64,000 nucleotides of DNA from positions 32,001 through 96,000 of IMG/VR virus record IMGVR_UViG_3300028827_000102. One strand, given 5' to 3'. The notes under the pieces are model-generated. The model worked only from the letters and a program-made list of their open reading frames with translations, searched no databases and was not told the origin of the DNA. The translations under genes were made by a program, and so were the position numbers. The DNA comes from a virus. Numbering within the stretch: position 1 is the first letter of the stretch; each line of letters opens with the position of its first letter. Positions 13,861 to 33,714 of this stretch are shown piece after piece.

Positions 13861-14580
13861 CTATAGATCATCAAGATCTAGATCGTCGTCAGACCACGGT
13901 AAATCGTCCAGGTCGTCATCATTCTCGTCAGCATCATCAAGATCAAAGTCATCCAGGTCATTCAAATCGTCGTCATCTTCTGTATTATTGTCATCGGCAT
14001 CATCGAGATCAAGTTCATCTAGATCATCATTGTCTTCATCTAAGCCAAAATCGTCCGAGTCAGCAGCATCGCTTTCGTCTGCCTTGGTTTTTGCGTCCGA
14101 ATTACTACCCTGATCAGACACATCATTAAAATCCAAATCGTCCAAATCATCCAGATCATCTATGCCCAAACCATCATCGTCGTCCAATACCAAATTTGTC
14201 TGACTGTCCTTTTTGTTTACATTCTTTTCGTCGTCTTTCTTCTTTGCCTCTTCATCGTCCTTCTTCGCCTTACGCTTACGTCCACGCTTACCCTTGGTCT
14301 TCTTCTCCTGCTCTTCCTCATCCTTCTTCGCTTTACGCTTACGTCCACGCTTACCCTTGGTCTTCTTTTCGGTTTTCTCAGCCCTTTCTTCCTTTTTCTC
14401 TGTTTCTACCCTAACATTCTCCTCTACCAACGCAGGAGCAGGCGAAATAGGAAAAGTATATATCTTTACACCTTCTCCAATGTCACCAGAAATGGTAAAC
14501 ATTGCGTCTTTTACTGCTACTACCTTGCCTTTTGTAAGTAGTGTTTCTACCTGACTAGAAGACAAAACAATCATAGACAT
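13861..14580 (-). CDS. Charge-segregated protein: duplicated K/R block followed by a long Asp-rich tail
   Basis: KKTKGKRGRKRKAKKD x2; about 100 aa of D/L-rich C-terminus; GGAGG RBS. Confidence 0.7.
   Translation of the reverse strand: MSMIVLSSSQVETLLTKGKVVAVKDAMFTISGDIGEGVKIYTFPISPAPALVEENVRVETEKKEERAEKTEKKTKGKRGRKRKAKKDEEEQEKKTKGKRGRKRKAKKDDEEAKKKDDEKNVNKKDSQTNLVLDDDDGLGIDDLDDLDDLDFNDVSDQGSNSDAKTKADESDAADSDDFGLDEDNDDLDELDLDDADDNNTEDDDDLNDLDDFDLDDADENDDDLDDLPWSDDDLDLDDL
14258..14367. repeat. 47-bp direct repeat (1 mismatch, period 63 bp) encoding the basic block
   Basis: Copies at 14258-14304 and 14321-14367. Confidence 0.85.
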
Positions 14581-17619: not shown

Positions 17620-18115
17620 ACTCTACCTCTTTTTTTAACCGACGATACAGTATTGTATGTAGCCATTTACAAGGAGGCAATGCTACTAAAACATTGTCTC
17701 CTTTATCTACGAATTTTAGATTCTTTATCTTAATTCTATTAGGAAAGCTGTCCCATACCGATATAAATTTGTTTATCGAGCTATCGTAGAAAAACCTATT
17801 TACATACTTTGTCGGTATTTTTAATTTATTTGCCAGCATTGTGGCTACATAGTAGCCAGTATCATCATGTATGTCATAATCACAACATAAACACCACAAC
17901 AACACGCAAGACAGTCTTAAATGCTTTCCTTCAGTATGCTGCTTTAGTTTTTTCATAAACAATCCGGCACTCAAATACACTCGTTCATCGTGAATGTCAA
18001 GGACAATATTACCGTCTTTTATATGATATGAACGTACATCTCCATATGTATTTATCACCCAATCTTTAAGTGGTGTGTCTTCCATTCTATGATATAATCT
18101 ATGTATTAGCATCAC
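17600..18115 (-). CDS. Hypothetical protein
   Basis: Coupled ORF within the replication operon. Confidence 0.55.
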   Translation of the reverse strand: MMLIHRLYHRMEDTPLKDWVINTYGDVRSYHIKDGNIVLDIHDERVYLSAGLFMKKLKQHTEGKHLRLSCVLLWCLCCDYDIHDDTGYYVATMLANKLKIPTKYVNRFFYDSSINKFISVWDSFPNRIKIKNLKFVDKGDNVLVALPPCKWLHTILYRRLKKEVEYEHENG

Positions 18116-20562
18116 ACCAACATTGACTTGTCCAGATACGGTTTAAATTTTTCTGGTAGTCCTGTTTTGTACAATTCCGCTACATGTTCGTTTCGTACAG
18201 CCCACCATACCTGATCAAACATATCTTCGTGAACAAACACATCGCGTTGATTGCCAATAACTATTATTGTACCAATTCTTTTGCGTAGATCATGCAGTAT
18301 ACGTAAAAGACTACTGGTACCCTGCGGATCAAGGTTAGAGAACGGTTCATCTACGACTAATAGATTGGTACTTGTTCCTGTATATATTTCTTTTAAATCT
18401 CTGATACCAAATAGTAAAGCTAAACCGGCCTTGTTCCTTTCGCCACCACTAAACAACCTGCTTACTACTTCAGGACCACCGTCTTTTCGTCTAAGAGCCA
18501 CCTTTACGTCTGTACCCGACGCCACTAAATCAAGCACCACATTGCGCTTTGGCCACATTAATTCACTATAGCGAGGGACGGTTTTAGTCACAGCATCTGT
18601 AAGTATTCGCTCAAATCGTATACGTTTAAGACCTTTCGCACCAAAAGCCTTTTTTAGTGCTTCTAAACATTTATAACGTTTGCGCACCTCTGTCATTTTA
18701 GCAAGACCTGATACAATCTTTTCTTTACGCTTCATCATAGCATCGTATCTATCTACACTAGCACCTAAATTACCTACCATACGGTCAGCTTCTGTTTTGC
18801 TTTCACGTATACGGTCCAGCTTCAGTTTTGTGTTATGTATAACTTCTCTTAGCTGTTCTATATCACCTGAAGGTAAATCTTTAATCCTATTCCTTTTGGA
18901 AATCATTTCTGTGGCAGCTTCTATCAATGTTTTCTTTTCTTTTATTACTTTTTCATACCGTTTCTTATCTTTTGTTATTTTATGCTGATCGTTTCCAGAC
19001 GGAAGTTCTGCCAATTTTGCTTGTATAGTCATCCTAGAAGCCGCAGCTTCTAATTCTTCCACCAAATTTTGCTCTTTTACCATAAGAGAATTAAGCATTG
19101 TACGAAGAGCTGGCGCATTTTTAGGTGGTTTTGGTATATTCTGAAGTTTTTCTTTTAGCTTGGAATGCTTGTCTGCTGTTTTCAGCGCTTTTGATATTTC
19201 ATTTTCCTGGCGAACAAGCTTTTCTAAATATGCACGACGTTTAGCAAGCCTATGTTTCTTTACTGAAACTTCTTTGTCAGACATATTAAATGGACGATGA
19301 CACGTCGGGCACACATCACTCTTTAGGGCTCTATTAAGATCATCTATCTCTTTTTCAGTCTTTGCTATTTCGCCTGTTAAATCTTTCCATTGTGCCCTTA
19401 GTGCCGTTATATCCATGTCAGGAATAGGACCAAGAGCTTTAATTTCTTCAGCAATCTCTATTCTACGCTCTGCGTTGGGTATATAAACATCTTCTATTTT
19501 TTGTATTTTCTTTCTAACGCTTTTTAAATCATCTTCTATTTCGTCTTTATCTCTTGAATCGGGCAATGCTTCTAATCTTGTCTTCAGTGTAGCAACTCTT
19601 CCTATGGCATCTAAAGCAGCTTTGCATTGTTCTACTTGCTTTATTGCATTTTCATAGCTGACCGACAATTTTTCAACATATTCGTCATCTATATCATCTA
19701 CAGAACCTACACCAAAATCAACACTGCTCCATATTTCTTCTATTTCTTTTTGTATTTGATTATATTCTTTTACTTCACGTAATCTATGCTGTAAACGATT
19801 CAACCGTTTTGTTCCGACAGAAAATTCTTTATCTAGACGTTCTGCTTCTTTTCTATAGTAAGCCAGATCCTCTACCAGATCGTACATAGACTTCCCAAAG
19901 CTATCCAAGGCTGCATTAACATCTTCCAACTCTCGTTCGAGTTTTTCGGCATCCCTGAGTACTATTTTGTCGGTAACTAACATAGATTTAGTCTTCTCTA
20001 GTAAATCATCATATACATCTAGAGAAAACATTCTCATCAGACTTTGTTGTCTTTCACTATCTGTTCCTGACAGCAAAACATTATTATAATCTTGCGGTAA
20101 ATAAACAAGACTGAACAAAGATCTGTCATCTAATTTTGTAATGTTATCTACCAACCATTTGGTAGGGTGTTTTCTTGCAGAAGAAGGTAGTATATTATCG
20201 CCTGTGGCAAGATCTATTATACGAAAGGAATTTCCATATTTTCCGTGGTTTCTGTACTGAACAATTTCGTATTTATGTCCATCTACAGATAAATGTAAAT
20301 GTGCCTCATAGTTTCCGCCAGATTGTACATTTATCACATCAGATACAAATGTGCGTTCGCTTCTACCAGTACCTTTTCCGCTTTTTCCTACTAGTAAATG
20401 AGAAAAAATTTCAAATGGGCTGGTTTTACCGGCTCCTAGAAACCCACCATCATCTACATTCAATCCACGTAAAAGCACCAACCCCTGATTCTGCAGCGGA
20501 ATATCACATGTTTTGTACGCATAACCATTATTAAACCAAAGCTTTGTGTATTCTACTCTCAT
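18112..20562 (-). CDS. sbcC: SbcC/Rad50-like SMC ATPase
   Basis: Walker A GAGKT, Q-loop LPQ, coiled coils, CPTC hook, FSGGE signature, VVDEPF Walker B. Confidence 0.9.
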   Translation of the reverse strand: MRVEYTKLWFNNGYAYKTCDIPLQNQGLVLLRGLNVDDGGFLGAGKTSPFEIFSHLLVGKSGKGTGRSERTFVSDVINVQSGGNYEAHLHLSVDGHKYEIVQYRNHGKYGNSFRIIDLATGDNILPSSARKHPTKWLVDNITKLDDRSLFSLVYLPQDYNNVLLSGTDSERQQSLMRMFSLDVYDDLLEKTKSMLVTDKIVLRDAEKLERELEDVNAALDSFGKSMYDLVEDLAYYRKEAERLDKEFSVGTKRLNRLQHRLREVKEYNQIQKEIEEIWSSVDFGVGSVDDIDDEYVEKLSVSYENAIKQVEQCKAALDAIGRVATLKTRLEALPDSRDKDEIEDDLKSVRKKIQKIEDVYIPNAERRIEIAEEIKALGPIPDMDITALRAQWKDLTGEIAKTEKEIDDLNRALKSDVCPTCHRPFNMSDKEVSVKKHRLAKRRAYLEKLVRQENEISKALKTADKHSKLKEKLQNIPKPPKNAPALRTMLNSLMVKEQNLVEELEAAASRMTIQAKLAELPSGNDQHKITKDKKRYEKVIKEKKTLIEAATEMISKRNRIKDLPSGDIEQLREVIHNTKLKLDRIRESKTEADRMVGNLGASVDRYDAMMKRKEKIVSGLAKMTEVRKRYKCLEALKKAFGAKGLKRIRFERILTDAVTKTVPRYSELMWPKRNVVLDLVASGTDVKVALRRKDGGPEVVSRLFSGGERNKAGLALLFGIRDLKEIYTGTSTNLLVVDEPFSNLDPQGTSSLLRILHDLRKRIGTIIVIGNQRDVFVHEDMFDQVWWAVRNEHVAELYKTGLPEKFKPYLDKSMLV

Positions 20563-21671
20563 AGGTCTTTTGCCAAATTCGCCAGTTTAACCGCTAACAC
20601 TTCCAATATAACTTTATTGTTTGTGTAATATGTCTTTATTCTTTCCTGCTCTCTGGTACAAAGATCAAGCATTTCTGCTATTATACTGGCCTTAGTAGTA
20701 ATATTTCCGGATTTGCGGTCAGGTAGTGGGACATTTTTTAACATGAATTTCTTTGTCTCGTCCATTAAATTTGGTGAAATCAAATATAATAACAATTGTT
20801 CCAACACTACTATAATTTGTCCGATAAAGTAATCATGTGCAGTTACTTCAGTGCTATAAGCTATAGCTTTACCGAACTTTCCAGACAACACTGAAGCAAC
20901 ATAATGCTGTACAGCTACATAGGTTTTTGTAGCGTCAGATTGCTTGATTATAGCAGGTAGAGCCTTGACTAGATCTTCCCCTGTCTTACCTGCTGAAGCA
21001 ACCTGTGATAGCAAATTTAGAGCGTCTCTAGGATGTCCGTCAACAGCCCGGGCAATCTGTAAAGTTGCTTTAGGAGGTATAGCTATACCTTCCTTTTTTG
21101 CTACAGGCAACAGTAATTTTTTGGCCAAAACTTCTGGCTTAACTGTTTTCAGATAGTATATTAAAGCCCTACTACGTATTGTGGTGGGAAGTACCTCCGG
21201 ATTGGTGGTACATAATATAAATCTGGCTTGACTATGAGGTTTCTCAAAAAGACGCAAAGCTGCATCAAACGCCTGCCTGGTTAGATTATGTGCTTCATCG
21301 ATTATAAAAAACCGATATTTATGTGGAGATCGGTACTTGGCTTGTTGTTCTAAAGCCCGTATAGCATCTATCCCTCTTTCGGATACCTGTTTTTCTACTA
21401 CAGAAGTAGTATCACCACCATAACGAATAGCTTTTATGGTTTGTTTGCAAGAATCACACTTGCCACAAATTTCTCCGTCTGTCCTATTTGTACAGTTAGC
21501 ATATAACGCTATCAACCACGCCAATGTGGTTTTCCCTACACCATGAGGACCACACAACAAAATAGTTGGATTGATTTCATCTTCCAAAGACCCACGAAGA
21601 GACGATACTACGGCATCTTGCCCAACTACTTGAGAAAATTTTATAGGTCTATACTTTGCTGTAAAATTCAT
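20559..21671 (-). CDS. dnaX: Clamp loader, DNA polymerase III gamma/tau-like
   Basis: KYRP..F..VVGQ, GPHGVGKTT, CGKCDSC, IIDEAH, TIRSR. Confidence 0.9.
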   Translation of the reverse strand: MNFTAKYRPIKFSQVVGQDAVVSSLRGSLEDEINPTILLCGPHGVGKTTLAWLIALYANCTNRTDGEICGKCDSCKQTIKAIRYGGDTTSVVEKQVSERGIDAIRALEQQAKYRSPHKYRFFIIDEAHNLTRQAFDAALRLFEKPHSQARFILCTTNPEVLPTTIRSRALIYYLKTVKPEVLAKKLLLPVAKKEGIAIPPKATLQIARAVDGHPRDALNLLSQVASAGKTGEDLVKALPAIIKQSDATKTYVAVQHYVASVLSGKFGKAIAYSTEVTAHDYFIGQIIVVLEQLLLYLISPNLMDETKKFMLKNVPLPDRKSGNITTKASIIAEMLDLCTREQERIKTYYTNNKVILEVLAVKLANLAKDL

Positions 21672-22669
21672 TCATTCACCTCTATCAACATTTTTCTGGC
21701 TATTTTTTCTGCCATAATAATCATATCTTGTTGTAGGTTTTCTTTTTCTAAGAACTCGTGGAGGTGCATAAGCGGATCTTCAAAAGACGATTCATACTTG
21801 CCATGCACCTTAACTGGAGGTTCATAGATTATATTGTCAGGCAAGACTACATTAGGATCAAGCTCTTTTTGTGGCTTTAATTTTAAGAATTCAGGTAAAT
21901 CATCACCTTTAAATTCATCCCAAACAACTAGAGGATATGGATGGTTGATGCGAACAAATTTTGGTTTTGCTTTGCCTGTGTCTACGATAAGAACGCCTTT
22001 ATTTTCATCCTCACCAAAATTTACCTGATGTGGCGATCCTGGATAATAAGCGTTGTCAGATATCTTCTGCCTTTTGTGTATATCACCAAGAGCCCAGTAT
22101 ACTATATCTGGCACATGGGGTATTTTGATTTGATTTGATTTTATTACCTTTGTACCATTATCCGTCACGGCTCCTGTAACAGCTTCGTGCATAACCGCAA
22201 TTATAGGTTTATTGCTTCTTGTCCTTATCTTTTCCACCATAGATTTTACTACTATATCAAAGTCATATCCAGACCAACCATGAAAAGGTAACAATAAAAA
22301 CACAACATCATTTATTTCGACAAAATCAGGCAGACCGTCACATATAACATGTTTACCAATAGGTAAATGAGACAGATAATTAAGAGCCGTATCACCAAAC
22401 TTATGTGATACTCTTTGATCATGATTGCCAGAAATAGCTATAACCGGTATAGGACAAGAATGCAACCAACCAGAAAATAACAATCTTTCGCTGTTTGTTA
22501 AATCCGGTCTATCCCAAATATCGCCAGATATAACTATAGCTTCTGCTTTGTATCTATTTGCTATGGCTGTTATTTTGTTTAGTGTAAATTTGTGTCTTAT
22601 AAGGTATTTACCAGGAAACTTTGCCCTTAGACAGTTTAAATGTAAATCTGCAGTGTGTAAAAATCTCAT
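21668..22669 (-). CDS. sbcD: SbcD/Mre11 nuclease
   Basis: HTADLH, SGDIWD, SGNHD, ALGDIH, YPGS. Confidence 0.9.
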   Translation of the reverse strand: MRFLHTADLHLNCLRAKFPGKYLIRHKFTLNKITAIANRYKAEAIVISGDIWDRPDLTNSERLLFSGWLHSCPIPVIAISGNHDQRVSHKFGDTALNYLSHLPIGKHVICDGLPDFVEINDVVFLLLPFHGWSGYDFDIVVKSMVEKIRTRSNKPIIAVMHEAVTGAVTDNGTKVIKSNQIKIPHVPDIVYWALGDIHKRQKISDNAYYPGSPHQVNFGEDENKGVLIVDTGKAKPKFVRINHPYPLVVWDEFKGDDLPEFLKLKPQKELDPNVVLPDNIIYEPPVKVHGKYESSFEDPLMHLHEFLEKENLQQDMIIMAEKIARKMLIEVNE

Positions 22670-22923
22670 AGGTCATTTTTACGTATGGCTGTACGGTAGT
22701 TGTCAATACTACGCAAGGCCGCTTTTGTTATCAGTTTGTGTACTATTCTAGCCAATTCATCATAAAATTCGTCATCTAGTACCCTCATGCCCATACTATG
22801 CAACAAAGAGTTAACTTTACTTTTATTAATTAAACGTGATACATTTCCATCTTTGGCCCATTTTTTAGAATGGCGTTTTACGGTTACTCTGTCTTTTATT
22901 TTTTTCTGTTCTGAACCATTCAT
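22666..22923 (-). CDS. Histone-fold protein with basic N-terminal tail
   Basis: LINKSKVNSLL...GMRV.DEFYDELARIVHKLITKAALRS..NYRTAIRKNDL fits the bacterial/archaeal histone alpha1-L1-alpha2-L2 layout with R-x6-D. Confidence 0.75.
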   Translation of the reverse strand: MNGSEQKKIKDRVTVKRHSKKWAKDGNVSRLINKSKVNSLLHSMGMRVLDDEFYDELARIVHKLITKAALRSIDNYRTAIRKNDL

Positions 22924-23127: not shown

Positions 23128-24282
23128 CTATTCTCCCTCTACTTCTACAGAATCATCTGTGCCGTCTAAAGCGTAGTTTTTATATCCTAGTAGCTTAAAA
23201 TGTCGTCTATATACAGCATCCTTTTTTAGTAGAGAAAAACAATAATTTCGGAATTCGTCGCTCTCAGCTACTTTTCTAAATGCATCCCAAGCTAGATATT
23301 TGTCTGTAAAAAACTTTTTAAGCAGTATTTTATTTTTTCCCTGTTTTCTTTCCACCATTCCTATTGCTTCTAGGAAATCTAGACCGTCTTGAGCTTTATC
23401 TATGCCCTTGCCCATTATAATGTCTAATTCAAACTCTTGAAAAGCGGGGAAAGTCTTGTTTTTTATTGTCCTTACCCATACATGTTGGCGATACATACCA
23501 ACTTTATCTTCTTCGGCTTTCTTTCTACCGTGTACTCTAATTGCATAATCAGGATAATACTTCCAAGCCTGCCCTCCTGTAGGTGCTTCCGGATTAGCAC
23601 CAGGCATACGCATATTTATATTCATACGTATCTGATTAGAAGCTATCATTATGGCGCCTTTGTGTGCCAGTAATGATTTAGTTACGCCAAGAAAACGAGA
23701 ATGCATTCTAGCTTCTAATCCAGCTGCACCTTCTCCCGTTTCCACATCTCTACTCTTAGAAAACATGGCAGCGACACTATCCAACAAAATCAAACAACTT
23801 GGTTTATTTATATCATGCAAATTCACATCCGGTAGACGTCTAAGAAATCTATGTAGATGTTTATATACCCCTTCACCTGTTTCTGGTTGAGCATAAAAAT
23901 ACGCAGGAACATTCTTTCCGTTTATTTCTATTGTTTTGTGTATATCTAATCCTTGTGTACGCATATAAACAGGATCGGCTGAATGTTCTGTATCATAATG
24001 AACAATCGGAATATCTAACTTTTGTCCAGATATCGCACAAGCTTGTAAAAATGTACTTTTTCCGGAAGCTTCTGGACCGTATATATGCACTAGCCTGCCA
24101 CACTGAAAACCTCCACCTAACTTCAGATCTGCTATGAGAGATCCAGTAGACAGGGCTTTATCTACACGATGTGCTTCTCCCAACGAAACGCAACGTATTT
24201 CATCTTTTGTATCATTAAATGCATCTACTATAGCTGTTACCGGATCGGTAAATTCTATATCAGACTTTTTCTTTCTCGGCAT
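23128..24282 (-). CDS. recA: RecA/UvsX recombinase
   Basis: STGS, GPEASGKST, ILLDSVA, EARM.S, NQIR, GG.A.KYY, KNK. Confidence 0.92.
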   Translation of the reverse strand: MPRKKKSDIEFTDPVTAIVDAFNDTKDEIRCVSLGEAHRVDKALSTGSLIADLKLGGGFQCGRLVHIYGPEASGKSTFLQACAISGQKLDIPIVHYDTEHSADPVYMRTQGLDIHKTIEINGKNVPAYFYAQPETGEGVYKHLHRFLRRLPDVNLHDINKPSCLILLDSVAAMFSKSRDVETGEGAAGLEARMHSRFLGVTKSLLAHKGAIMIASNQIRMNINMRMPGANPEAPTGGQAWKYYPDYAIRVHGRKKAEEDKVGMYRQHVWVRTIKNKTFPAFQEFELDIIMGKGIDKAQDGLDFLEAIGMVERKQGKNKILLKKFFTDKYLAWDAFRKVAESDEFRNYCFSLLKKDAVYRRHFKLLGYKNYALDGTDDSVEVEGE

Positions 24283-24386: not shown

Positions 24387-25469
24387 TCAATCAAAAGTTA
24401 GATCGTCATCGTCATCGAAAGAAAAATCATCAAGGTCGTCAGAAGAATCGGAAGAATCATCGTCATCATCATCGAAAGAAAGGTCATCGTCATCATCATC
24501 GAAAGAAAGGTCATCGTCATCATTCTTATTTTTTGCCTTCTTTTTATTGCCCTTATTGCTTTTATTGCTCTTATTGCCTCTTTTTCTGCTGCTATTTTTC
24601 TTAGTATTTGTCTTCTCTTCGTCTACAGTATCTTCGTCATCAAAAGAAATGTCATCAAGATCATCATCATTGTCAGTATCAAATTCAATATCGTCAGAAG
24701 ACGTGCCAGACACAGATACAGACACAGGAGCCCCAGTAGCTTTAGCTAAAGCAGCGTAACACCCCAACGAGTGTAACTTCTGTTCCAACACATCTGAATC
24801 TATGGTTTCTATTGAATCAAGCAAATCTACTAGTACGCCTTTATGTACCTTCCCCCCTAGCTTACATACATAAGCATCCTTATTTTCAATGTATTTCACG
24901 GGGAGACGTTTTCCTGTGGATACGAATTTGTATTCTACTCCACTCATATATGGATTGCTGCTCTTTTGTGCTAGCCATGTGAGCACTACACCACGCTTGT
25001 CGTCGTCAACAGAAGAACCTATTGCTTCTGCTATTCCCTTAAGTTCCTTCCACTCCAATACGTTCATATTTACCAGGCCCCACTGCTCGTCCGCGTTTTT
25101 CTTTATATTTGTGATGTGGAAAGCATGAGCCAAGTATCTGAAACTCTGAGGCATACGCAACCACTCAAAATCATTTCTCACGTCTATATACTTGTGGAAA
25201 TTGGCGCATATGGGGCAACCATTATCGACACTGGTAGCCTCAGCTATATCCCAATTTGGACATAAAGTATAGAATCCCTTTAGATCGTTTGATCCCTTTG
25301 GAACAAACTTGACGTAGTGTGTAACTATGGTAGCAAATCCACCTACCAGCCTAATCTGTACCGGCTTTCCAATAGACGGTCTAGAAAGCAGAGGAAGCAT
25401 TTCATCCCAACGTGAATCCGACTGCTGCCCAGGAACCTCTCCCATAGAACGGAAACCCTTTTTTCTCAT
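24387..25469 (-). CDS. gp32-like single-stranded DNA-binding protein
   Basis: QIRLVG...H...C...CPIC N-domain; very acidic tail with DDDDLSF repeats (27-bp unit) ending LTFD; next to recA. Confidence 0.7.
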   Translation of the reverse strand: MRKKGFRSMGEVPGQQSDSRWDEMLPLLSRPSIGKPVQIRLVGGFATIVTHYVKFVPKGSNDLKGFYTLCPNWDIAEATSVDNGCPICANFHKYIDVRNDFEWLRMPQSFRYLAHAFHITNIKKNADEQWGLVNMNVLEWKELKGIAEAIGSSVDDDKRGVVLTWLAQKSSNPYMSGVEYKFVSTGKRLPVKYIENKDAYVCKLGGKVHKGVLVDLLDSIETIDSDVLEQKLHSLGCYAALAKATGAPVSVSVSGTSSDDIEFDTDNDDDLDDISFDDEDTVDEEKTNTKKNSSRKRGNKSNKSNKGNKKKAKNKNDDDDLSFDDDDDDLSFDDDDDDSSDSSDDLDDFSFDDDDDLTFD

Positions 25470-31544: not shown

Positions 31545-33714
31545 AATATACTTTTACTTCCTTTCTTTTTATTGCTGAGATTGTATCTGATAAGCTTAAT
31601 ACTTTTCTTTTTCCATCTAAAAATACCACAAAATTCTTATTTCCTGCGACTGACAAATTCTTTCTTGTGGTTATTGATAACTGTTCGACCCTTCTACCAT
31701 TATCGGATAATAACACATTTCCAGGAGAAAGTACAAGCACTTTCTTTACATCGGATCTACCGATCCTTTTAGGAAGAACATTTGGTCTCGTTACTTTTAG
31801 ATTAGAGACTTCCGTTTTTATTATTCTTCCATTCTTACATATTATTAATATAGTGTCTTCATCGTTTACACCCACAGCAAACAAAGGATTATCGTCTTTT
31901 TTGAACGCCTTAAATATTTTTCGTCGTTGGTCTGAAGGAAACAAAACATAATTGCGCGTTGACAACACTAAGCAATATTTTTTTGTACTAATACCAACTA
32001 TTGATCCAGGTTGCTTTTCATATCTGTCAGCATATGATGTGTCTAAAACAGACACTATATTAGTGTCGTACACAACAACGGCTCTTTCACTTGCCTTCTC
32101 AAAAGATGTATAAGACCATGCTGCTTTTGTGTTTGTAGGTATTTCTTTAAAAACAGATACTGTTTCTTGTCCTGCTCCCACCCAATACTGTATGTTTTCT
32201 ATGGTAGAAATAGACACAGGTTTAACGCATAGCTTGGTGCCGCGTTTCTTTCCTAAAGGTTTTATCTCAAGTAAGTGTCTCTTGATGACATCATCAATAT
32301 TAGCCAAATCTTCACGCAAAGCATTGATTTTTTGCTTTGTTTTCTTTATTTCACTTACTATTTTATCTATATCTGAACGCAGTAATGTAGAAATATTTGC
32401 ATTTAGTATTATATCGGCCTGTTGTTTTGTTACACCAAGGTTTGTACATAACGACTCAATTGCATCTGTTTTGCCCTCGGCTGTCTGTAATATTTTCACC
32501 ACTTCTTTAGCATGTTTAGCTGCTTTGTATTTAGCTATCTGTGTTGCTAGTAATTTACGTTGCGCCAAGATAGACCGTGTGAGTCTGCCAGACTCAATCT
32601 CACGCCTAAATACAATAAATTCTACAAGAAGGGAACGTAAATTATATTTTTTTGGTTTACCGTTTATATCTAAACAATACCATTTGTACGAAATTTTACT
32701 GTCCAGAAGAGGAAGTATCCTGTCTTTTACCGCTCTACCATCAGAAAATTTTATTGTAAATCTTTGTCCGTTTTCTAACGTGGTTTCGTCAGTAATCGGA
32801 CTATCTATTAATCCAGCCTTGAAGCAGCTTATTGATGTGTCTAACAACTTAGATCTGCGTCCACGCATTTCTGGCGCAAAAGCGGTTATCACCAATAGTT
32901 GCTCATCGTCATTAGTTTCTATATGATACTCAGACGAATAATGTAACGATCCCTCTCCTGTTTCATATAAACGTAACAGATCCCCTTCAGACGACAACAA
33001 TACGCCAGAACCGTAATCTGGTCCTTTTATAAATTTCAACAGATCTTTAGTAGTAGCATCGGGATTATCTATAAGATGACAACAAGCATCTATAACTTCA
33101 TGTAAATTATGTGGAGGTATGTTAGTAGATAAACCTACAGCTATACCGTCTGTCCCCTTTATAAGGGATAAAGGTATTCTGACAGGAAGGATAACGGGTT
33201 CATCTAACGTAGCGTCGTAGTTTTTTGTCTTCTGTACTATATCTATATCAATAAACAACGACTCTGCTAATTTTGATAATCTGCATTCAGTGTATCTGCT
33301 ACTAGCCGCCGGTCTCTTTTGATAAGACGAAAAATCTCCAAAATTGCCGTCTGGTATTATAAGCCGGTCTTTGTCATGAGCCAGTAACACCAAAGCTTGA
33401 TACACTGCTGCATCGCCGTGTGGATGATATTTACCTATCGTTTCTCCTACTATTCTTCCACTTTTTACAGGAGGCCGGGAAGACAGAGCATTTAGATTAT
33501 ACATAGCCCATAAAATACGTCGCACGCTGGGCTTTAATCCATCTCTGGCATCTGGAAGGGCTCTGTTTTCTATAGCATATTTACCATATTCTACAATACA
33601 GTCTTTTACTATTTCTTGAGTAGATTTAAACGTTACATTTCCATCCTTTCCAGCTGTTTTAGTTTTTCGTCCAAGTCTGCCAGTTGGCGTTCTATTTCTT
33701 TTTTTGGTACCCAT
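31528..33714 (-). CDS. gyrA: Type IIA topoisomerase subunit A (GyrA/ParC-like)
   Basis: RALPDARDGLKP, GKYHPHGD, AASSRYTE (catalytic Tyr), GIAVG..TNIPPHNL. Confidence 0.9.
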   Translation of the reverse strand: MGTKKRNRTPTGRLGRKTKTAGKDGNVTFKSTQEIVKDCIVEYGKYAIENRALPDARDGLKPSVRRILWAMYNLNALSSRPPVKSGRIVGETIGKYHPHGDAAVYQALVLLAHDKDRLIIPDGNFGDFSSYQKRPAASSRYTECRLSKLAESLFIDIDIVQKTKNYDATLDEPVILPVRIPLSLIKGTDGIAVGLSTNIPPHNLHEVIDACCHLIDNPDATTKDLLKFIKGPDYGSGVLLSSEGDLLRLYETGEGSLHYSSEYHIETNDDEQLLVITAFAPEMRGRRSKLLDTSISCFKAGLIDSPITDETTLENGQRFTIKFSDGRAVKDRILPLLDSKISYKWYCLDINGKPKKYNLRSLLVEFIVFRREIESGRLTRSILAQRKLLATQIAKYKAAKHAKEVVKILQTAEGKTDAIESLCTNLGVTKQQADIILNANISTLLRSDIDKIVSEIKKTKQKINALREDLANIDDVIKRHLLEIKPLGKKRGTKLCVKPVSISTIENIQYWVGAGQETVSVFKEIPTNTKAAWSYTSFEKASERAVVVYDTNIVSVLDTSYADRYEKQPGSIVGISTKKYCLVLSTRNYVLFPSDQRRKIFKAFKKDDNPLFAVGVNDEDTILIICKNGRIIKTEVSNLKVTRPNVLPKRIGRSDVKKVLVLSPGNVLLSDNGRRVEQLSITTRKNLSVAGNKNFVVFLDGKRKVLSLSDTISAIKRKEVKVYYAIST

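Follow-up and report, generated by a model that had tools for sequence, protein, structure and literature searches.

A phage-encoded homologue of face-to-face histones with a basic N-terminal helix, in a chain of recombination and replication genes

Does a tailed phage make a histone together with its recombination enzymes, and if so, of which type and to what probable use? The question is raised by a short gene in IMG/VR virus record IMGVR_UViG_3300028827_000102, of which we analysed a stretch of 64,000 nucleotides (positions 32,001 to 96,000 of the record; hereafter the window, whose own numbering is used throughout). The gene, an open reading frame (ORF) of 85 amino acids on the minus strand at positions 22666–22923, had been interpreted from the letters alone, in what we call the sequence-only reading, as encoding a tailed histone-fold protein. 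Bacterial histones were demonstrated only in 2023–2025, and those of tailed phages come so far from computational surveys only. We find that the encoded protein, P0001, is a face-to-face (FtF) alpha3 histone, a homologue of the bacterial HLp and the archaeal HTkC, with a basic N-terminal extension that looks like an added helix.

Identification of the histone fold

Family databases are nearly silent on P0001. As a single sequence it gave only a sub-threshold match to DUF2767 in Pfam, nothing in PHROG and only itself in a word-seeded protein search, and a Pfam scan of P0001 together with its six closest relatives found no histone family. The family lies below Pfam's reach, and its relationship to histones is seen only by the profiles built in this analysis. 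An exhaustive phmmer search of 1.84 billion representative sequences found three small relatives, P0002 (82 amino acids, E = 1.4e-16), P0004 (84 amino acids) and P0006 (78 amino acids), two of which have a clean C-terminal R-x-T-x4-D motif. A four-sequence profile, compared with the PDB, matched the whole chain of HLp (9qt0, E = 2.8e-9) as well as HTkC (9f2c, E = 5.8e-7), and reached Bdellovibrio HBb (8fvx, 8cmp) at E of about 0.02. With seven sequences, the profile collected 1,171 proteins at E ≤ 0.001, many of them carrying PF09123, PF00808, PF00125 or the JGI name 'histone H3/H4'. In many of the profile matches (P0014, P0016, P0022 and others, 115–128 amino acids) the alpha3 fold, of the FtF-like kind, occurs twice in tandem to give a single-chain pseudodimer, with N-x-R-x-T-V-R-x-x-D at the end of both halves; among the matches, these doublets far outnumber the N-extended clade described below.

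The AlphaFold2 (AF2) model computed with a multiple sequence alignment (MSA) of 32 sequences has a mean predicted local distance difference test score (pLDDT) of 94.7 and a predicted template modelling score (pTM) of 0.80, and supersedes a mediocre single-sequence model (pLDDT 72.9) whose Foldseek E-values were non-significant. The top nine PDB matches of the MSA model in Foldseek are all prokaryotic alpha3 histones, followed by dozens of H4, CENP-A and TAF chains. HLp superposes with a template modelling (TM) score of 0.92 and a root-mean-square deviation (rmsd) of 0.8 Å over 55 columns, HTkC with 0.89–0.90 and 0.9 Å, and HBb with a TM score of 0.77–0.83; no Foldseek E-value is better than 0.03, which is to be expected of a fold with so few residues. 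VIA-align, which is independent of Foldseek, has HLp (Z 7.0), HTkC (Z 6.6) and HBb (Z 6.4) as its top three among 48,161 chains. The best viral matches in BFVD share the common core, with an rmsd of 1.0–1.1 Å over 54 columns, but are longer (99–139 amino acids). Atlas look-alikes, taken as leads only and with scores of at most 0.92, include bacterial alpha3-histone-like clusters and one cluster of 76 amino acids that is 93% viral. Since the profile matches, the AF2 fold, Foldseek and VIA-align all agree, the call of a histone fold is sound, and the sequence-only reading was right to see a phage-encoded histone-fold protein here.

Alpha3-truncated histones, including the FtF type, were defined by Schwab et al. 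2024 (PMC11390915); their alpha3 has just 3–4 residues, and their alpha2 falls short of that of nucleosomal histones by 4–5. In the model of P0001, alpha3 has 3 residues, alpha2 has 23 and is shorter than in nucleosomal histones, and the chain ends at L85. The sequence-only reading had held the protein to fit a layout with an RKTxxxxD (R-x6-D) end. The spacing stands, with R77 and D84 as its two ends, but the threonine of the R-x-T-x4-D motif is Ala79 in P0001, with T78 one position earlier. That threonine is present in at least 90% of the 32 aligned sequences, and alanine occurs in its place only in P0001 and P0002.

Assignment to the face-to-face type

The roles of the tetramer and DNA-contact residues of HLp have been described (PMC12701072). 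Its tetramer residues R49, N53 and R55 align to R71, N75 and R77 of P0001, and its clamp residue D62 aligns to D84; N75, R77 and D84 are invariant in the 32 sequences, at least 90% of which also have R71. In the FtF sequence logo the tetramer residues are R48, N52 and R54, and bacterial-dimer histones are without R48 and N52 (PMC11390915). We assign P0001 to the FtF type and not to that of Bdellovibrio Bd0055 because R71 and N75 are present and because the profile reaches HBb so much more weakly than HLp.

A multimer prediction with four copies of P0001 reached an ipSAE of 0.87, whereas the highest value among three controls was 0.02; at least 93% of contacts recur from run to run, and the pLDDT of the partners is at least 88. 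Among proteins of solved structure, 20 of 30 determined as pairs attain the ipSAE mark, as does 1 of 23 determined as single chains; these counts were obtained with two copies and apply only roughly to a prediction with four copies and its own alignment. Each predicted handshake dimer is held by crossing alpha2 helices (61:61, 57:65), by contacts of alpha1 with alpha2 (40:65, 41:69) and by the pairing of loops L1 and L2 (46:72, 80:53). A second, smaller predicted interface between copies 1 and 4 consists of residues 70–71, 74–75, 81 and 83–84, the positions of R49, S52, N53, R59, T61 and D62 in HLp. The absence of a histone-fold match or of a predicted handshake dimer had been named beforehand as outcomes that would speak against a histone; both were checked, and match and dimer were both found.

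Other histone types were considered and set aside. The sequence-only reading had placed the protein with Bd0055 and DUF1931, and neither half of that assignment survives. The 'bacterial dimer' type of Bd0055/HBb is contradicted by the HBb E-value and by the FtF tetramer residues R71 and N75. The DUF1931 proteins are pseudodimers (PMC12701072); P0001 is a single fold of 85 amino acids, and neither it nor its six closest relatives matched PF09123 at E up to 1. The PDB label of HLp, 'DUF1931 domain-containing protein', is the depositor's name. The 'phage histones' of Schwab et al. 2024 combine an N-terminal alpha3 fold with a tetramerisation helix at the C terminus and are without the RxTxxxD motif (PMC11390915); P0001 ends one residue after alpha3 and keeps R77 and D84. 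Nucleosomal archaeal histones, which form hypernucleosomes, have an alpha3 of about 10 residues; besides the much shorter alpha3 of P0001, the superposition on HMfA/B is poor (TM score 0.56, rmsd 3.0–3.1 Å).

The N-terminal extension

Relative to minimal histones of 55–58 amino acids, P0001 is extended by about 28 residues at its N terminus. Residues 1–28 include 9 lysines or arginines and have a net charge of +6. Described at first as a K/R-rich 28-residue tail, the extension is indeed basic, but in the model it forms a confident helix and takes part in the dimer interface, to which residues 11, 14–15, 18–19, 21–22, 27 and 30–33 are predicted to contribute. From the sequence, a basic stripe with i+4 spacing (K8/R12/K16/K20/K24) runs roughly opposite the face that makes the dimer contacts.

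In the family tree, 14 N-extended proteins of 70–85 amino acids form a well-supported clade (100/99), separate from the short histones, with P0001 as sister to P0002 (100/97). Throughout this clade, position 15 is hydrophobic, 16–17 are K/R, 21 is mostly K, 22 is aromatic in all 14 members (W22 in P0001) and 23 is hydrophobic or aromatic, and position 30 is K/R where short histones have E/D. The strong K/R enrichment of the extension is particular to P0001. Because the helix is confidently predicted, contributes to the predicted dimer interface and has positions that are conserved in the 14-member clade, the extension looks like a structural element, alpha0; the conserved hydrophobic and aromatic positions and the predicted helix led us to reject a floppy, disordered tail of the eukaryotic kind. 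The extension must also be translated, since codon 1 alone can serve as a start ahead of the conserved alpha1: no in-frame ATG, GTG or TTG was found between codon 1 and codon 40, and the next starts, at codons 40–46, lie inside alpha1.

Gene, junctions and neighbourhood

The gene starts with ATG, is present as a single copy in the record of 108,580 base pairs and encodes a protein of 9.9 kDa with an isoelectric point of 10.2 and a net charge of +10, in which all residues quoted in the sequence-only reading are present. Its ATG and the TGA of the upstream orf68 overlap as ATGA, as do its own TGA and the ATG of sbcD; by coordinates, further overlaps of 4 nucleotides follow between sbcD and the clamp-loader gene (21668–21671) and between the latter and sbcC (20559–20562). 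The coordinates, strand and ATGA junctions described beforehand, within a chain of recombination and replication genes, are thus confirmed. We found no Shine-Dalgarno sequence upstream of the histone ORF, and its translation is presumably coupled to that of orf68. Near the end of orf68 the transcript has a hairpin (Table 1) with a predicted folding energy of –10.6 kcal/mol on the mRNA strand and a z of –2.7, a candidate that could modulate translational coupling or mRNA processing.

Along the minus strand the genes follow in the order recA/uvsX, orf68, histone gene, sbcD, clamp-loader gene and sbcC. The sequence-only reading had given the run as SSB-recA-orf-histone-sbcD-dnaX-sbcC; family scans agree for recA, sbcD, the clamp loader and sbcC, whereas the label of single-stranded-DNA-binding protein (SSB) finds no confirmation other than an SSB-like acidic C-terminal tail. 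The minus-strand chain extends from about 26849 to 13044 with one sizeable gap only, of 104 nucleotides, between the gene of a 360-amino-acid protein and recA. No terminator-like site was found on the minus strand from recA to sbcC except one inside the clamp-loader gene, and a scan for sigma-70 promoters stayed at chance level (47 found, 49.5 expected). The surroundings of the histone gene also hold an ATP-dependent ligase, a sigma-70-like factor, a PD-(D/E)XK nuclease, a DnaG-type primase, GyrA-like and GyrB-like subunits and a family-A polymerase with a uracil-DNA glycosylase (UDG)-like domain.

Two neighbouring proteins have unusual compositions. In the 360-residue protein upstream of recA, the C-terminal third consists of a lysine-rich block followed by repeated acidic units of the DDDDDLSFD type and ends in DDLTFD; this tail resembles an exaggerated acidic tail of SSB or gp32, and its D-L-x-F-D units are similar to those of the protein encoded at 13861–14580. 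The latter has an N-terminal domain of about 55 residues, two very basic AT-hook-like repeats (KKTKGKRGRKRKAKKD) and then about 120 extremely acidic, D/L-rich residues (DDLDDLDDLDF...), a composition reminiscent of acidic histone chaperones or DNA mimics. The sequence-only reading had joined gyrase, SpeD-fold enzymes and the 13861 protein with the histone into a phage chromatin system. Such a system is not supported: gyrase subunits belong to the usual replication equipment of phages, the 13861 protein is without a family match, the 108,580-base-pair record has no gene of the HU family, and no link of these components to the histone was found.

Table 1. Positions of the histone gene, its parts and its neighbours in the window
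Feature	Position	Strand	Evidence or remark
P0001, alpha3-truncated FtF histone-fold gene	22666..22923 (stop codon included)	-	ORF, profile matches, AF2, Foldseek, VIA-align
Basic extension, codons 1–31, predicted helix alpha0 (3–31)	22831..22923	-	AF2, block pLDDT 87–96; dimer contacts; conservation; no alternative start
alpha1, codons 34–43, starts K34-S35-K36	22795..22824	-	AF2; S35 and K36 nearly invariant in 32 sequences
alpha2, codons 52–74, 23 residues, ends with R71 and D74	22702..22770	-	AF2; crossing contacts 61:61, 57:65, 57:61
Loop L2, R-x6-D clamp and 3-residue alpha3 (82–84), codons 75–85 (N75-Y-R77-T-A-I-R81-K-N-D84-L)	22669..22701	-	N75, R77, D84 invariant in 32 sequences; predicted dimer-dimer interface
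orf68, upstream ORF of 68 amino acids, one hydrophobic segment	22920..23126	-	TGA overlaps histone ATG; no Pfam or PHROG family
mRNA hairpin, perfect 9-base-pair stem and 6-nucleotide loop	22947..22970	-	inside 3' end of orf68, stops 24 nucleotides upstream of histone start
RecA/UvsX-type recombinase	23128..24282	-	upstream, co-directional; PF00154 1.8e-35; phrog_97 9.6e-50
SbcD/Mre11-type nuclease	21668..22669	-	ATG overlaps histone stop; PF00149 6.3e-11; phrog_100 9.3e-25
Clamp-loader (DnaX/gp44-like) AAA+ subunit	20559..21671	-	PF13177 9.8e-26; phrog_5846 1.9e-55
SbcC/Rad50-type ATPase	18112..20562	-	phrog_77 3e-60
360-amino-acid protein upstream of recA	24387..25469	-	no Pfam, PHROG or meaningful PDB sequence match
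Sigma-70-family protein, 453 amino acids	25488..26849	-	regions 2 and 3 detected; heads the co-directional replication/recombination chain
Family-A DNA polymerase, 963 amino acids	36056..38947	-	N-terminal UDG-superfamily domain PF03167 4.8e-16, then 3'-5' exonuclease and polymerase domains
239-amino-acid protein	13861..14580	-	no Pfam or PHROG match

The phage

The source record has a CheckV completeness of 31%, and a protein identical to P0001 is also present on a contig of 163 kb. The record contains genes for a terminase large subunit (TerL; phrog_17415, 2.3e-99), a portal protein (phrog_16240, 1.2e-70) and a head-tail connector, which identify a tailed phage (Caudoviricetes). Its TerL is 27–30% identical to those of the jumbo myoviruses NCTB, Motura and PaBG, and the nearest TerLs come from jumbo phages of 190–260 kb. 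A blastn search with the operon against GenBank phages gave no match, and tblastn with P0001 and P0020 against the same phages gave nothing meaningful; in IMG/VR, a RecA query found no close phage relative and an SbcD query found relatives at 22–36% only. The source is probably an uncultured jumbo phage to which nothing in IMG/VR or GenBank is closely related. No tRNA genes were found in the window. Part of the stretch is contained in four DNA runs from one metagenome sample of 2015, with no RNA run listed.

Proposed role and alternatives

We think it probable, with considerable room for doubt, that P0001 is an FtF histone that is produced along with the replisome and the enzymes of recombination and has an architectural role on replicating or recombining phage DNA. 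Co-production is the most likely timing because the gene is translationally coupled to sbcD and is read in the same direction, within one chain, as recA/uvsX, the clamp loader, sbcC, ligase, primase, topoisomerase II/gyrase subunits and polymerase; expression would thus fall alongside that of these enzymes. A role as a packaging protein of the virion is less likely; the TerL and portal genes lie about 29 kb from the histone gene. Homology, charge and the basic helix suggest that P0001 binds DNA, in a mode that may differ from the wrapping by HLp. Of the DNA-contact residues of HLp, the 'paired ends of helices' site A13/S14/K15 is kept as K34/S35/K36 and R59 as R81. In the mechanism we propose, a tetramer of about 40 kDa with a charge of +40 would bind double-stranded DNA without sequence preference, gripping it with the alpha1 N-terminal site K34/S35/K36, with R81/K82 of L2 and with the exposed basic face of alpha0 (K8/R12/K16/K20/K24). 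Its two dimers would meet through the C-terminal end of alpha2, L2 and alpha3, by the same R/N/R residues as in the HLp tetramer, and the tetramer would bend, wrap or bridge short stretches of DNA.

A number of observations weigh against this proposal. Several contact positions of HLp are changed in P0001 (K17 to N38, K21 to H42, T27 to V48, G29 to D50, K54 to Y76 and T57 to A79), and loop L1, which exceeds that of HLp by one residue, is acidic (D50-D51-E52); canonical wrapping may be weakened or altered as a result. The N-terminal helices, placed by the model in the dimer interface, could mask some of the surface that normally meets DNA. The multimer score, besides having been calibrated on two copies and applied to four, may echo the solved tetramers of HLp and HTkC as known to the model, and so express likeness, not binding. 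Viral FtF histones, P0001 included, are known from computation alone. Finally, the association with recombination genes is seen at a single locus. In NCTB, Motura, PaBG and two complete IMG/VR contigs that have SbcD relatives, the family profile detected no member, with the phage's own record as positive control, so that the gene does not belong to the conserved content of such replication modules, and searches for related loci with family alignments and members found nothing in viral, metagenome or genome contigs. The histone gene is a sporadic acquisition and not a core gene of jumbo phages.

The same observations leave space for other functions. By analogy with the eukaryotic MHF1/MHF2 (CENP-S/X) histone-fold tetramer, P0001 might have the same fold but be an accessory factor of recombination instead of a general coat of DNA; it would bind branched DNA or ends and modulate strand exchange by UvsX/RecA or the processing of ends by SbcCD. 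The place of the gene between recA/uvsX and sbcD, its coupling to the latter, the partial erosion of the canonical wrapping contacts together with the gain of a basic helix, and the presence of MHF-type chains (4e44, 4drb) among the weaker fold matches are all consistent with such a role. We nevertheless hold it to be rather unlikely: P0001 resembles MHF in fold but not in sequence, a gene neighbourhood is by itself weak evidence, here from one locus, and related jumbo phages with RecA and SbcCD are without the gene. We see less probability still in a different use of the extension, by which the basic alpha0 helices would be arms that project from a histone-fold core and grip DNA, and P0001 a new kind of DNA binder, forming a phage 'replication chromatin' made with UvsX and SbcCD that would coat, bridge or protect the phage DNA during replication and recombination, possibly with the acidic-tailed proteins at 13861–14580 and 24387–25469 as chaperones or partners.

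A histone-fold scaffold for protein-protein contacts that does not bind DNA, comparable to TAFs or to DUF1931 pseudodimers without DNA-binding residues, would account for the loss or change of six contact positions and the acidic L1, as well as for an N-helix that may occupy the DNA face; the high charge and isoelectric point, the retention of K34/S35/K36 and R81 and the exposed basic stripe on the added helix make it improbable. We also give little credence to a function directed at the host or its defences, in which P0001 would compact or silence the host nucleoid early or shield phage DNA from restriction or CRISPR nucleases. Jumbo-type phages protect their own DNA by other means. A basic and probably sequence-independent DNA binder in a non-structural gene block would suit that function, and histones go unmentioned in a review of jumbo-phage biology from 2026, but the gene sits with replication and recombination genes and not with recognisable takeover or anti-defence genes, and nothing separates host DNA from phage DNA as the target. 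That the ORF is a chance or mis-called frame, as the silence of single-sequence Pfam and PHROG searches and the lack of a Shine-Dalgarno sequence might suggest, is effectively refuted: the gene is more than a chance ORF because it has relatives at the protein level and significant profile matches to solved histones, and it has in addition a high-confidence fold and an exact fit into the chain of 4-nucleotide overlaps. The architectural role as an FtF histone on phage DNA remains the reading that we prefer.

For experiment, the locus offers a concrete candidate, a small protein with a high-confidence model and clear predictions in a setting beside a recombinase and SbcCD. Experiments on P0001 would tell if phages put histones on the DNA that they replicate, and what a minimal histone gains from an N-terminal extension. 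Its value is that of a good experimental entry point, not of the discovery of a principle.

Comparison with known systems

The best match in both sequence and structure is HLp of Leptospira perolatii (9QT0/9QT1/9QT2; PMC12701072), and both proteins are single alpha3-truncated folds. HLp is a bacterial protein of 63 amino acids with no N-terminal extension, whereas P0001 is encoded by a phage and adds a basic helix of 28–31 residues; tetramer and DNA wrapping are experimental results for HLp and predictions for P0001. HTkC of Thermococcus kodakarensis (9F2C; PMC11390915) shares the alpha3 fold and belongs to the same family of torus-shaped tetramers, but is archaeal, has 59 amino acids and, unlike P0001, is without an N-terminal helix. 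HBb/Bd0055 of Bdellovibrio bacteriovorus (8FVX, 8CMP, 9EZZ) shares the alpha3 fold and bends DNA as a dimer. The Schwab 2024 'phage histones' (for example A0A2E7QIQ9) and the VTTHFPs are, like P0001, phage-encoded alpha3 folds; the extra helix of the former is C-terminal, that of P0001 N-terminal.

Closest in kind is a viral FtF-like class published in 2025, which was obtained by computation only, IMG/VR being among the sources mined, and consists of predicted tetramers with a Lys-rich N-terminal extension of 5–40 amino acids; cellular FtF histones are without such an extension (PMC13681535). P0001 fits this class in its Caudoviricetes genome, in its extension of about 28 residues with 9 K/R and in the origin of its record from IMG/VR. 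It is not a new kind of protein but belongs to one already described computationally, and the novelty claimed for it at first was overstated. The published account calls the extension a tail, whereas the model of P0001 predicts a helix that contributes to the dimer interface; the operon context of P0001 is documented here as well.

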